NCBI GenBank assembly: GCA_964016885.1
Contig: OZ024744.1
Span: forward strand, 84,940,001-85,004,000
Length of the DNA: 64,000 nucleotides
Direction: 5' to 3'
Source: Eledone cirrhosa
Taxonomy: Eukaryota
The translations under genes were made by a program, and so were the position numbers. Below are positions 13,665 to 52,760 of the stretch, piece after piece. The notes beneath the pieces are model-generated. The model worked only from the letters and a program-made list of their open reading frames with translations. It was not told the origin of the DNA and made no database searches. The first letter of the stretch is position 1; each line of letters starts with the position of its first letter.

Positions 13665-13872
13665 AACGGAGGAAATGTGGAAAGGAACAAGGTGGACCAT
13701 AACGCACCAAAGTACTCAATACTTAGGGTAGTAGAGTGGGTAATAGGAACGAGTAGGACCCCGACGGCTGAGCTCAAGCCGTTTCGACGGTTAATTCTGG
13801 ACTAAAAAAAAAAGTCCAGAATTAGCCGTCGAAACGGCTTGAGCTCAGCCGTCGGGTTCCTACTCGTTCCTA
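13665..13872 (-). mobile_element. Fold-back element family C (half-HHR) in (TA)n
   Basis: Arms 13743-13803/13813-13873; contains GAAA cggct-tgagctc-agccg TC. Confidence 0.8.
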
Positions 13873-14413
13873 TATATATATATATATATATATTGTTTTA
13901 TTGATTTATTGATATTTTTTCTGAGTGTCCCGAATCTTCCAGATCGCAAATTTTCGGTCGTACGGTTGATTATAGACTTGTTCTATGTGTGACGGTATTT
14001 TAACGATAGTTATAGCTCTGATTTATCTGAATTATTGAGCCCTCTGCCGCTCATTTTCGAATTTTGTTTATCGTGAACTCGTGCGCCGATTTTTCGATAC
14101 TCGATTATTCTACTATATATATATATATATATATAAATGGAAAAAAGGAAATTTCATTTCTCACTCTTAGTACGGCTGATACTTAAATGTATATATACAC
14201 ATACTACTGTACGTCTGTACACATATATGTATGTACGTATACATATTTATATTTAAGTTTCAGCCGTACTAAGAGTGAGATATGAAATTTCGTTTCATTC
14301 TTTTCCATTTATCGTTTTCGGTACCCCGGCCGACTGACTCACTCGATATGCAAATTAGGCTACTCAGCCGTTAATATGCATAAGGAAAGTATATCCTTTC
14401 AAACGTTCAATCA

Positions 14414-14484
14414 ACTGACAGGGAGTTATATAGTGCTGATGACAGCTAATAAGCTAGAAACTAGTTCATCGTTCCTTTGTCAGT
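14414..14484 (+). ncRNA. Minimal (dimer-type) hammerhead ribozyme (family E)
   Basis: gtg CTGATGA (14436-14442) c-agct-aata-agct-a GAAA ctag TT cat; palindromic aactagtt; distal stem actgacagggag/ttcctttgtcagt. Confidence 0.7.
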
Positions 14485-14699
14485 GTTGAACAAAACGGCA
14501 ACGATAGTTGCCAAACACTGTACGGCTTAATTCCAGCTTAATTTCTGCCTTTGTCACTCTAAATATAAATTATAGCTTTAAAGAATTAGCTTTTAATGAA
14601 TTCCCTCTTCTATCAACTAACGACCTCTACCCATCGCACTCCCACCCTCCCCTACCACCTGAAAAGACCTATATATACCACTTTTATTTTTGGATACCC

Positions 14700-14750
14700 A
14701 GATTCCTGATGATTTCTAAAGAATGAAACAGTTCTAGTCCTGTAGAATCT
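14700..14750 (+). ncRNA. Type I hammerhead ribozyme (family F), intact
   Basis: agattc CTGATGA tttc-taaa-gaat GAAA cag-ttctagtc-ctg TA gaatct. Confidence 0.82.
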
Positions 14751-16299
14751 CATCTATATTAAAACTTTTATACTCTGCTATGTATTGAGTACCTTACTTA
14801 CTGTGGTTACCTCCGATTCAACCCGGAATAACGTATATATATATATATATATATATATATATATATATATATATATATATATATATATATATATATATAT
14901 ATATGTGTGTGTGTGTGTGTGTGTGTGTGTGTGTGTATTAAAATAACAGATTAAAGTTTAAGCGAAGAATCGTTGCTGTCACCTTTAACGAGATCTTCTG
15001 AAACTAAAAAAAGTCAATATATATATATATGTGTGTGTGTGTATATATATATATATATATATATGTGTGTGTGTGTGTGTATGTATATATATGTGTGTGT
15101 GTGTATGTATATATATATATATATGTGTGTGTGTGTATGTATATATATATATATGTGTGTGTGTGTGTATATATATATATATATATATATATATATATAT
15201 ATATGTGTGTGTGTGTATGTATGTATATATATGTGCGTGTGTGTATGTATATATATATATGTGCGTGTGTGTATGTATATATATATATATGTGTGTGTAT
15301 GTATATATATATATATGTGTGTGTGTATGTATATATATATATATATGTGTGTGTGTGTGTGTGTATGTATATATATATATGTGTGTGTGTGTATGTATAT
15401 ATATATACATATGTGTGTGTGTATGTATATATATATATATATATGTGTGTGTGTGTGTATGTATATATATATATATATGTGTGTGTGTGTGCGTATGTAT
15501 ATATATGTGTGTGTGTGTGTATATATATATATGTGTGTGTGTGTGTGTATGTATATATATATATATATGTGTGTGTGTGTGTGTATATATATATATATAT
15601 ATGTGTGTGTGTGTGTGTATGTGTTGAACCTCCGTCAGTTACGACGGTGAAATTAAAGTGCAAATGATTTAGCACCCAGACGAAATTCCATGATAGACAG
15701 TTATAAATGAGGGCAGCCATGTTGGAAATCTTTGTTTTTTTTTTGGTATCCGTTCCGGTTCTCTACGATCTGAGTTTAAATCATGCCGATTATATAATAT
15801 TTAGGTTGATAAACGGTTAAATATGGTAACTGAGTAAATTGTTATCCTTAAGCAAAGATAGAGTAAAGGGACAGCAAAGGAACCGAGGGACTGGAAGAGA
15901 ATAAAGGAGAAAAGAAAGAAAGAAAGAAAGGGAAGAAAGAAAGAAAGAAAGAAAGAAAGAAAGAAGAAGAAGAAGCGGAGGGGTAGGAGGAAAGAAAGAA
16001 GAAAAAACGAAAGCCAGAAATAGGGAAAGAAAGAAAGAAGGAAGAAGGAGAAGAAGAAAAGGGGTAGGAGGAGGGGAAGAGGAAAGAAAGAAGAAAAAGA
16101 AAAAAGATAGAAGAAAAAAAACGAAAGAAAGAAAGAAGAAGAAGGGGTGGGGGGGGGGGGGGAGAAGAAAAAGAAAATAGACAAGAAAAAAACGAAAGAA
16201 AGAAAGAAAGAAGACAGAAAAGAAAAAACAAAAGAAAGAAGAAAACAAAAGAGAAGAAAACAGCCAGGAACTTGATAGAGATATTGGAGGAATGAAAGA

Positions 16300-16490
16300 C
16301 TTTAATAATTGTTTCTACTTTTTGGCACAAGGCCAGCAATTATTTCAGTGTATTACTGGTACTTTATTTTATCGACCCCCGTAAGGATGAAAGGAAAGCT
16401 AACCTCGGCGGGATTTGAACTCAGTCCGTAAAAGGGACGTAACTGCTGCAAAGCATGGCGTCCGACCTTCTACCGATACTGCCAATCCCC
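16300..16490 (-). mobile_element. tRNA-derived SINE family 1
   Basis: A box TGGCAGTATCGG, B box GTTCAAATC, central cctttcatccttacggggtcgataaaataaagtacc; many copies in the window. Confidence 0.88.
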
Positions 16491-17579
16491 CCCCCCCCTC
16501 CCCAAAAAGAAAGTGTATAACAGGTAGGAGAGAACAGGACAGATAGAAAAAAGGCGGAAAGAAAGAACGAGACGATGGATTAGCAAAATTGGTAGAGCGT
16601 CAGAGAAAATGCTATTGTGGTATTTGCTTTGGCTCTTGGTGTTCTCAGTTCAAATCACACTGAGGTCAACTTTGACTTTCATCCTTCCGGGGTCAATAAT
16701 ATAAAGCAGCGATTAAGTACTGGGATTGATTTCATCCTCGTCCCTCCCGGGGGTCGATAAAAAAAATGTAGCCGCTAAATACTACGGGTGGTATAATCGG
16801 CTTTAATCTCCCTCAAAACTAATGGGTTTGTGTCTAGATTTGAGGATTTGAAACAATTTATTTATGAGGGGGTCAATGGCGAAAGAAAGTGTAAGATAAT
16901 AAAACTAATTTAAGATATAGAAGAAAGAAAAAAAATATAAAATTGGATGCAGAACGAAAGAGAGAGAGAGAGAGAGAGAGAGAGAGAGAGAGAGACTAGA
17001 ATGATAAGTGAGTGAGTGCTGTGTTTTGCAGTGTTTTAGAGGTCATATTCGCTCCAGTCACCAGTTTAGTACTTTTCTCTGACCCGCGAAGACTAGGCTT
17101 TTTTAGAGGCGGTCTTTTCATGCCTTGTTGTAGATACATCACAATTTTGTTAGAGTTTTCTTAACAGCTAACAGTGTTACGCATTGCTCCCCCGTATTGG
17201 TCTCCCCTAAACGTTTACTGCTGTTGGTCCGAGGTTGTTTATTTATATCGCAACTAACCATCATATCAGGCGGCCGTATCGCTATCCGCCACCTGTAACT
17301 CGTTCTCTAGTGAAACAGCTGGTACTGCAGAAAGTAACTGATTTGATAGAAGGTAGTGATGAAATTGTATGTAAATAGGGTTATGTGTTGAGGGAAATAG
17401 GGTAAAAGATGTAATATTGAAAACAGAAAGGGTAGAATAACAGAGATATGTAAGGATAAACCAATCAATAATTAAACAAACTAGCAGAAAAACGGGGACG
17501 ATAAAATAAAGTACCAGTAATGCACTGGGGTAATTGCTGGCCTTGTGCCAAACGTAGAAACAATTATTATTATTATTAG

Positions 17580-50902: not shown

Positions 50903-51068
50903 TATGGGTAGAGGGTCGGACGCCATGCTTTGCAGCATAGAGTTACGACCCTTTCCATTCTGAGTTCAACTCCCACCGAGGTTAACTTTGCCTTTCATCC
51001 TTTATAAATAAAGTACCAGTAATGCACTGGGGTAATTGCTGGCCTCGTGCCAGATGTAGAAACAATTA
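50903..51068 (+). mobile_element. SINE family 1
   Basis: Homology to the other copies. Confidence 0.85.
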
Positions 51069-51177
51069 TATTACGAACAAGTGGGTGGGAGTGGATTGGC
51101 AGAATCGCTAGAGCGTCGAACAAAATTCTTTTGTGACATTTCTCCTAGCTTTAAAATTATTATTATTATTGTTCTTT

Positions 51178-51866
51178 GAGTCTCAGTCATTGATGTTAGT
51201 TAACTGGAAAGTTTATTGAAATGAATATCAAGCCACTACCTGCAGCTTCAGATATTCAGGACGTATCGGAGGGTTCTTGCTGTTCCCAGCAAGCATGCCT
51301 TTTGAAGTGTTCCAAAAAGCTGGACTGGACCAATTTTCTTTAACCATCCTTGGAAACTCTTTGAGATAGTCCCTAGTGCGCCTATGACAATCGGGACCAC
51401 TTTGACTTCATGGCAGTTCCAAATCCTTTTTACCTCCCACTTTAAGTCCTGGTATTGGTTAATTTTCTCCCTCTCCTTCTCTTGCACTCTCGTGTCGAAT
51501 GGGCGGGCCACATCCACAATCAGGCACGATCTTTTTTCTTTGTCCACAACCACCAGGTCAGGTCTATTGTGTTCCAGTTTCTTGTCCGTCTGTATTCTAA
51601 AATCCCACAGCACCTTCACCTGATCGTTTTCCATCACCGACTCTAGCTTATGCTCATACCACTTCTCAGAATGTGGTAAATTGTTTACTTTGCATAGGTG
51701 CCAGTGGATCACCCTGCCCATCACATCATGTCTCCAGCCTTTATAGTGAGTCTGGGCTAGGTGTTTACACTCGGATACAATGCGAGCCACAGTCTTCTCT
51801 CTCTCTCCACAGATCCTACACAGTGGGCTAGCCTCCTCCTTGTAAATATGGTGTTTCAGCCACTTC
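51178..51866 (-). mobile_element. R4/Dong-like RLE LINE 3' fragment
   Basis: SECKHLAQTHYKGWRHD..NRPD..EK..YQDL; same family as 17580-18658; next to (TAA)n. Confidence 0.9.
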
Positions 51867-52019
51867 AGATTTTCGTTCTACCAAAGAACGTGGAGAGAAG
51901 CTAAATGTTGCCGCTAAGCTGCAGCGTATCGTATATTTAGTTGTCACGTGTTATTTCCAGCAAGGGAAATAACCCTTATATATATAAGCAGGACTCTGGC
52001 TTTACTGTAGCATCGGCTC

Positions 52020-52198
52020 AGAGTTAAGGCGAAAAATATATCGGATGCCGACGACATAGATTTGGTGACAAATACAGTGAAAGAGGCAGAGGATTTGATG
52101 CAAGAGGTTGAGACTGTGTCGATGAGTGTGGGGCTGAGAATGAATGAGACTAAAACAAAATATCTGGTAGAGATTGTTGAGAAGTCAGAGGGGATTAC
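52020..52198 (+). pseudogene. LINE RT fragment (RTE-like)
   Basis: [31 protein letters not shown]. Confidence 0.7.
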
Positions 52199-52570
52199 TA
52201 ATGTATATATATATATATATCTATATATATACGTATATATATATGTGTGTATATATATATGTATATATAGATATATATATGTATATATATATATATATAT
52301 TTATATGTATATATATGTATATATATGTATATGTATATATATATATATGTATATATATATATTTATATGTATATATATGTATATATATGTATATATATAT
52401 ATGTTTGTATATATATATGTATATATATATATATACGTATATATATATATATATAATATATATATATATATATGTGTGTGTATATATATATATGTATATA
52501 TATGTATATATATATATATATATATATATATATATACACACATATATATATACATATATATTCATATATA

Positions 52571-52760
52571 TAGGAAAAAGTATGACCCCGACGGCAGAGC
52601 CCAAGCCGTTTCGATGGCTATTTCCAGAAATAGCCGTTGAAACGGTTGGAGCTCTGCTGTCGGGGTCATACTTTTTCCTATTACCCACTCTACTACCCCA
52701 AGTATTGAGTACTCTGGTGCGTTATGGTCCATCTGGTTTCTTACCACATGTCCTTCGTTA
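52571..52760 (+). mobile_element. Fold-back element family C
   Basis: Hairpin centre 52625-52626; GAAA 52639-52642. Confidence 0.8.

Follow-up and report, generated by a model that had tools for sequence, protein, structure and literature searches.

Fold-back insertions of a Penelope-like element in Eledone cirrhosa cluster within one loop of its hammerhead ribozyme and may record the 5' ends of the copied RNA

Twin priming in LINE-1, in which the second end of the cut target primes on the same RNA, is known to give insertions with an inverted 5' segment. For Penelope-like elements (PLEs), the mechanism of tandem and inverted insertion and the role of the hammerhead ribozyme are named as open questions in passages of two studies (PMC8557442; PMC11167929). 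In vitro, sections of the report on the Poseidon element PAc describe both target strands as cut and extended, with two internal start sites that bound the tail, and a 5' truncation of the RNA that shortens the product (Frangieh et al., 2024, PMC11167929). The present analysis concerns a stretch of 64,000 nt from the genome of Eledone cirrhosa (GenBank assembly GCA_964016885.1, contig OZ024744.1, positions 84,940,001 to 85,004,000; hereafter the window), in which short palindromic insertions of a hammerhead-bearing PLE, here called family C, lie in the TA-rich DNA of a 3.0-Gb genome. It had been predicted from this window that such fold-backs turn around inside the ribozyme by a positional rule common to unrelated families. 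The architecture of these insertions is already known; the rule is real for family C and was over-generalised to the other families.

Family C positions are counted from 0, the first base 3' of the predicted hammerhead cut, with G12 of GAAA at -23. The sample consisted of the first 100 tail matches listed, young copies from one chromosome, and both arms of each were aligned jointly to natural long copies. An inverted arm was present in 76 of the 100 copies, which bears out the view that the insertions are PLEs with an inverted 5' segment. The 152 arm ends of these inverted copies comprise 110 at -46 to -33, a stretch of 14 nt of loop II, together with 39 further 3' and three further 5'. Over all 176 ends, the density was 0.12 per nt in this interval against 0.0027 per nt over the next 200 nt upstream, so that the breakpoints are strongly clustered in loop II and non-uniform, as had been expected. 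The 3' ends are also confined. Of the 76 short arms, 70 terminate at +20, in what is here called site a (+17 to +20); 13 of the 42 copies with a complete ribozyme likewise end at site a, and the long arm ends at site b (+96/97), 80 nt 3' of site a. Both sites are followed in the element by TAT, which, judged from its sequence, could pair with the target. Sixteen arms end at -41, the predicted start, and in 11 of the 16 a G comes next, which could be a cap-derived addition; the count is confounded by the G that one parent variant carries there (3 of 43 parents) and by the G already present in the inverted arm. Contigs from four runs of one study contain many different family C joints, and none among the pieces listed spans a whole stub; one of the samples may be that used for the assembly.

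In the window, four of the five palindromes assigned to family C turn in loop II, 8–20 nt before GAAA, and the fifth, at 42714, belongs to a sister subfamily (C') of similar layout. The 5' half of the ribozyme core, said to be always absent, is indeed absent from these four copies, whose arms end in loop II. The claim that both ends abut (TA)n also stands, with a strict TA pattern on both flanks in 64 of 76 family C fold-backs and TA-rich flanks, by eye, in 10 of the other 12. The statement that one arm is always longer is true of the 3' ends but not of the 5' ends, where the short arm often extends further.

The 38-nt ribozyme motif of family C has 18,175 exact matches in the genome and the 43-nt tail motif has 17,507. 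Long copies hold the half that the stubs lack, namely stem I, a C/UUGANAA core, stem II, and a 37-nt loop II; parents with the 5' hammerhead half, the check proposed in the original prediction, were found in 42 copies among the fetched loci. The full unit is approximately 3.54 kb long and occurs in a five-copy tandem array with a period of about 3,542 nt. The array that was read has an open reading frame (ORF) of 717 aa, in which YRDD and a YIG motif can be read directly, and ends at site b within (TA)n. The best homologue of this ORF carries PF01541 (GIY-YIG); the homologues listed are unnamed or hypothetical, and a Pfam scan and a PDB sequence search of the ORF returned no match. The ORF has the Hydra-clade signatures, i.e., an RWK-type motif (RWR), DKT, a CxCX5C linker, no CCHH pair in the nuclease core, and CxxC and CxH close to the C end. 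In line with endonuclease-positive (EN+) PLEs, there are tandem copies, an inverted 5' copy in the 76 of 100 sampled copies, and a tail (+20 to +96), and a hammerhead motif is present in the pseudo-long terminal repeat (pLTR). By these motif signatures, the family C parent is classified as a Hydra-type PLE. Full-length tandem arrays with a period of about 3.53–3.54 kb were seen at L151-L152 (G000:C1:91472000-91491999), C1 ~437.2 Mb, and C2 ~320.55 Mb.

The predicted family C hammerhead has the type I pattern (core C/UUGANRA, GAAA, UH, and three stems), and three of eight parents (L016, L058, and L112) fold with the three stems as the minimum-energy structure. The ORF of a second family, E, is approximately 52% identical to that of family C, which makes it a relative rather than an unrelated family. 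Its hammerhead is compact and lacks the G10.1-C11.1 pair; pairing of stems I–III is preserved in 57 variants, among which stem I shows one A-U/C-G change. For family F, a full hammerhead fold could not be confirmed, and Rfam gave no hammerhead match for C or E, nor among the 150 window matches listed. Single-sequence folds behind sites a and b have z = -0.5 and -2.0. A similar word, GAG(T/C)ACTTT, occurs 24–28 nt 3' of both start sites (L058:1474-1600), and the word TATTGAGTAC in the tail is common to families C and E.

The best explanation for the fold-backs, and in our judgment a probable one, is twin priming on one RNA, run-off at RNA 5' ends, and end joining. An endonuclease would cut both strands of the (TA)n target, and one cut end would prime at site a and the other at site b on the same RNA near its 5' end. 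The a-primed enzyme would lead and usually reach the RNA end, and the b-primed enzyme would follow, displacing the first complementary DNA (cDNA) or stopping early. The RNA end would be the transcription start or, in a minority, the ribozyme cut; the two cDNA ends would be joined head to head, bluntly, through short microhomology, or with added bases. In long copies, priming would take place at the 3' copy of sites a and b. The 5' half of the core would always be missing in family C because the predicted start lies inside loop II. A family C transcript would thus begin with half a ribozyme, and ends at 0 would have to come from tandem read-through or assembly in trans; if true, cleavage would be limited to the 3' end, to tandem junctions, or to assembly in trans with the other end's 5' half. 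The broader proposal that the stubs are a fossil map of RNA 5' ends, that the hammerhead cuts template RNA in the germ line, that the cut RNA is copied twice, with one copy starting at either DNA end, and that the family C promoter lies in loop II is, in our estimate, evenly balanced.

The pile-up of arm ends (the wall) was compared with promoter-like motifs family by family. In family C, a TATA-like box lies at -70 and an initiator (Inr)-like A at -41, both within loop II. The family E sample consisted of 52 insertions from 50 loci, 26 of them inverted (the mis-parsed long AT-rich palindromes L179 and L288 were counted as non-inverted, and L283/L285, with one junction, may be duplicates). In this family, a TATA box at -75 precedes the entire ribozyme. 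Arm ends are concentrated at TATA+29 to +42 (41 of 52), a segment that corresponds to the 5' strand of stem I and the start of the core; in most fold-backs, the turn lies at the 5' edge of the core, which is retained wholly or for the most part. For families F and D, the arm-end predictions were fixed before further copies were fetched. All 10 arms of the five closest family F pairs end at TATA+30 to +34, by the 5' edge of the core, and four other arms at +30 to +35, and 29 of the first 30 loci cross the hammerhead-like motif without stopping. In family B, an Inr-like motif lies 25 nt upstream of the core and collects 8 of the 36 ends. A TATA-like box precedes an Inr-like A by 29–32 nt in four families (C, E, F, and D) with differing ribozyme layouts. 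The wall of family C lies past all helices and that of family E at the 5' edge of the fold, so that the pile-up follows no single structural feature. The claim that unrelated families behave in the same way did not hold up, since E keeps the core, D is broad, B peaks upstream of the core, G is dispersed, and F mostly runs through. Similarly, the centre at 26536, taken as a turn point set by the ribozyme, is not a hot spot in family D. The best common explanation is that the wall marks a predicted transcription start, with strong support in C, E, and the short F pairs and weak support elsewhere.

Several observations weigh against a transcription start. The family C box is a non-canonical TATA variant, and the ends of this family spread over 14 nt; the wall of family E coincides with the 5' edge of stem I. 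In family F, 36 of 56 arms extend more than 100 nt beyond the predicted start; of the 14 arms that do end there, 10 belong to pairs selected for closeness. The family D prediction was partly borne out, with 6 of 42 ends at TATA+29 to +40, 23 spread downstream, and 13 upstream (of 45 rows, three scoring <20 were excluded, and the anchor failed to pick up some arms). A TATA box at the expected spacing is missing from family B and, at -30, from the parents of C', whose ends nevertheless lie at the same place as those of C; the 26 ends of family G are dispersed and follow no rule. The samples are, moreover, first matches on one chromosome, biased toward young copies.

These points are shared in part by a variant of twin priming in which processing, or a 5'-to-3' nuclease halted at a structure or bound protein, creates the RNA end seen as the wall. 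In C as in E, the wall stands approximately 45 nt 5' of the cut; its coincidence with the stem I edge in E and the missing boxes of C' and B would be expected under this variant. We nevertheless regard it as unlikely, as the spacing of box and Inr-like A is kept in C, E, F, and D despite their different ribozyme layouts, the family C wall lies inside a loop and not at the edge of a fold, and PLE pLTRs are described with a start site and TATA/Inr motifs in parts of two earlier papers (PMC8557442; PMC3846280).

A second, smaller class of ends lies at the predicted cut. Position 0 is included in 10 of the 176 family C arm ends. Genome-wide, one subfamily has 123 insertions in which both arms reach 0 with at most 4 nt between them; the same two-arm test, moved to -5 with a broader pattern, gave a single insertion, and at +5 it gave 28, of which about half have one arm that extends to 0. 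Among the first 50 cut-site insertions listed, 36 are blunt or have one A/T. Family E showed no clear cut-site peak, with 1 of 78 ends including 0 and three at -2, which fits mostly uncut templates. The suggestion that the ribozyme sets the geometry of insertion thus survives in part, for the smaller class of copies whose arms end at the predicted cut (123 against one at -5), and not by stalling; the ribozyme seems to act by making an RNA end.

The two arms of a copy are related in ways that bear on how they were made. Family C junctions comprise 30 with added bases, 15 blunt, and 31 with microhomology (1 to at least 4 nt), and the spacers are 0–15 nt long. The short arm extends past the 5' end of the long arm by at least 10 nt in 17 copies, and the reverse holds in one (p = 1.4e-4); family E shows the same nesting in six against one. 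At the family C wall, both arms are found in 50 copies, neither in 14, the short arm only in 11, and the long arm only in one; in L081 and L093, the arms do not overlap. A 7-nt subfamily haplotype is common to both arms in 52 of 61 copies (shuffle mean 19.5), with differing haplotypes in nine of the 61 pairs counting against a single template, and equal arm ends occur in 13 of 76 copies against 4.8 by shuffle. From nested, correlated arms with a shared haplotype, we infer that one RNA was copied twice in most cases, with the site-a enzyme leading. Joins in the same orientation were also found: 11 of 15 distinct ends in the 5' untranslated region (UTR) or ORF join a 5' part in the same orientation, eight at -44 to -38 and three at 0±1 (positions partly read by eye), and these joins, without a hairpin, use the two points used by the fold-backs. 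As a separate observation, L061 and L050 have arms with different common subfamily haplotypes, from two templates or later conversion.

The haplotype concordance (52/61) and the correlated arm ends would also be accounted for if the cDNA primed itself at the RNA end, the endonuclease cut the second strand back to site a, and deletions of the centre afterwards removed the original junction; parts of an earlier study likewise attribute the tail to endonuclease resolution (PMC8557442). Such deletions should shorten both arms equally, and the bias toward a longer short arm is 17:1 and 6:1. Furthermore, perfect zero-loop palindromes survive unedited (e.g., L045, L050, L064, and L094), the arms of L061 carry different common haplotypes, and sites a and b match the two start sites described in vitro in sections of PMC11167929. 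This route is therefore doubtful, somewhat more so than the processed RNA end.

The original mechanism, in which the folded hammerhead halts the reverse transcriptase and the cDNA forms a hairpin on stem II to self-prime second-strand synthesis, is not supported and fares worse again. It would suit the clustering of family C ends just past the 3' strand of stem II and the similar ends of C', which has no TATA box there, and self-priming is the published reading of PLE junction palindromes, on an antisense template, in the relevant part of PMC3846280. A hairpin on stem II would keep the 37-nt loop II and the 5' strand of stem II, and only 3 of 152 ends pass -46, so that such a hairpin fails; loop and strand are lost. 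In a snap-back test requiring microhomology of at least 2 nt, a loop of at least 3 nt, and no added bases, 0 of 76 family C junctions passed; in family E, 2 of 26 did, a point in favour of snap-back. The short arm cannot template the tail and under snap-back must be a subset of the long arm; it holds sequence absent from the long arm and cannot be a copy of it, as the 17 to 1 nesting attests. The arms of E usually cross the whole ribozyme, nearly all of the first 30 F loci cross the hammerhead-like motif, and the same-orientation joins use the same points, which together make stalling very improbable. Lastly, a fixed palindromic miniature inverted-repeat transposable element is ruled out by variable centres and junctions and by coding parents, and assembly artefacts have hardly any more to recommend them than the very high copy number (17,507 exact tail matches), given that subfamily variants are present in the arms, that arm ends fall on fixed sites of the element, and that complete parents and five-copy arrays with the 717-aa ORF exist.

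The copies in the window are listed in Table 1.

Table 1. Element copies and fold-backs in the window (positions in nt of the window)
Feature	Position	Strand	Details
Family C fold-back stub	13666..13870	-	Long arm -43 to tail end b; inverted short arm -41 to site a; spacer of 7 nt untemplated T/A; (TA)n flanks on both sides
Family C fold-back stub	20935..21125	+	Arm ends -40..-36; centred on a 4-nt self-complementary word, 20988-20991
Family C fold-back stub	24582..24774	-	Long arm from -41 (A of Inr-like motif), short arm from -37; stem III subfamily variant common to both arms
Family C' stub (diverged sister subfamily)	42715..42876	-	Longer stem II; arm ends in 3' part of loop II
Family C fold-back stub, older	52572..52758	+	Arm ends -39 and -31
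Family E direct copy	14670..14833	+	Promoter-ribozyme layout; TATA box 14670-14677, predicted start A 14700 (TATA+30), core 14706-14712, GAAA 14725, predicted cut after 14744, tail end 14833
Family E fold-back stub	46230..46396	-	Long arm begins inside core (-36), short arm at GAAA
Family F fold-back	24878..25347	+	TATA box 25111, Inr-like A 25142 (TATA+31); inverted arm ends at TATA+35, direct arm extends beyond TATA box
Family D fold-back with tail	26290..26619	-	Centre 26536 = TATA+117
Family B fold-back	22407..22687	+	One arm with whole ribozyme-like motif, other ends within core
Family G fold-back	21201..21421	+	Direct arm begins in core

Other fold-backs or inverted pairs lie at 59140-59495, 59518-60201, 54365-54514, 585-949, 5934-6497, and 14144-14295, some with hammerhead motifs, e.g., at 60027 and 59692. 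A larger inverted duplication (1465-1993 / 2552-3246) consists of pieces 91–100% identical, interrupted by microsatellites. Broken ORF fragments of related PLEs, 31–45% identical to the family C protein, are found at 44502-45279 and 55011-56604. Outside the window, L169 (G000:C2:356026000-356035999) is a seven-copy family C tandem mini-array with a 299-nt unit, in which the 5' UTR and ORF start are joined to a complete hammerhead whose loop II is shortened; the array resembles a retrozyme and could derive from circular RNA. A three-unit mini-tandem with a period of 257 nt stands behind a fold-back at L123/L124/L106 (G000:C1, about 27009500-27010160) and repeats an identical -44 junction, which suggests repeated jumping on one RNA, or a circle.

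A positional rule for breakpoints was not found in the open-access full texts covered (most subscription papers and the supplements lie outside this set). Thousands of young copies give base-level predictions of two start sites, the transcription start, the cut site, and the order of synthesis, and the junctions make the two open PLE questions testable by 5'-end sequencing and the existing type of in vitro assay.

Compared with LINE-1 twin priming, the non-overlapping copies are alike; here, the start sites are fixed, the arms mostly overlap, and the duplication ends at the RNA 5' end. Among PLEs, the Hydra clade, as described in parts of PMC8557442, resembles family C in its single ORF with reverse transcriptase and C-terminal GIY-YIG, its motif set, the pLTR hammerhead, the (TA)n targets, the tandem and inverted copies, and the one-sided tail; it differs in being generally <3 kb with a tail of 30–40 nt, compared with approximately 3.54 kb and 80 nt here, and those parts give no map of the points at which inverted copies start. 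EN+ PLEs share the head-to-head inverted repeat, the junction palindrome, the one-sided tail, and TATA/Inr motifs in the pLTR, according to sections of Arkhipova et al. (2013, PMC3846280), where self-priming takes place on an antisense template, whereas two separately primed cDNAs on sense RNA are indicated here. The minimal PLE hammerheads treated in passages of Cervera and de la Peña (2014, PMC4209133) have the same type I topology and U3-A8 core variant and occur as opposite-strand motif pairs 100–700 bp apart, for which processing of a precursor RNA was proposed; in family C, by contrast, stem III is stable and the promoter-like motifs sit in a loop II of 37 nt. Those passages contain no breakpoint map. 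In the corresponding portion of the Poseidon study, the in vitro reaction did not require ribozyme cleavage, and none of the RNA reads ended at the cut (Frangieh et al., 2024, PMC11167929), in contrast to the 123 cut-site insertions found in this genome.

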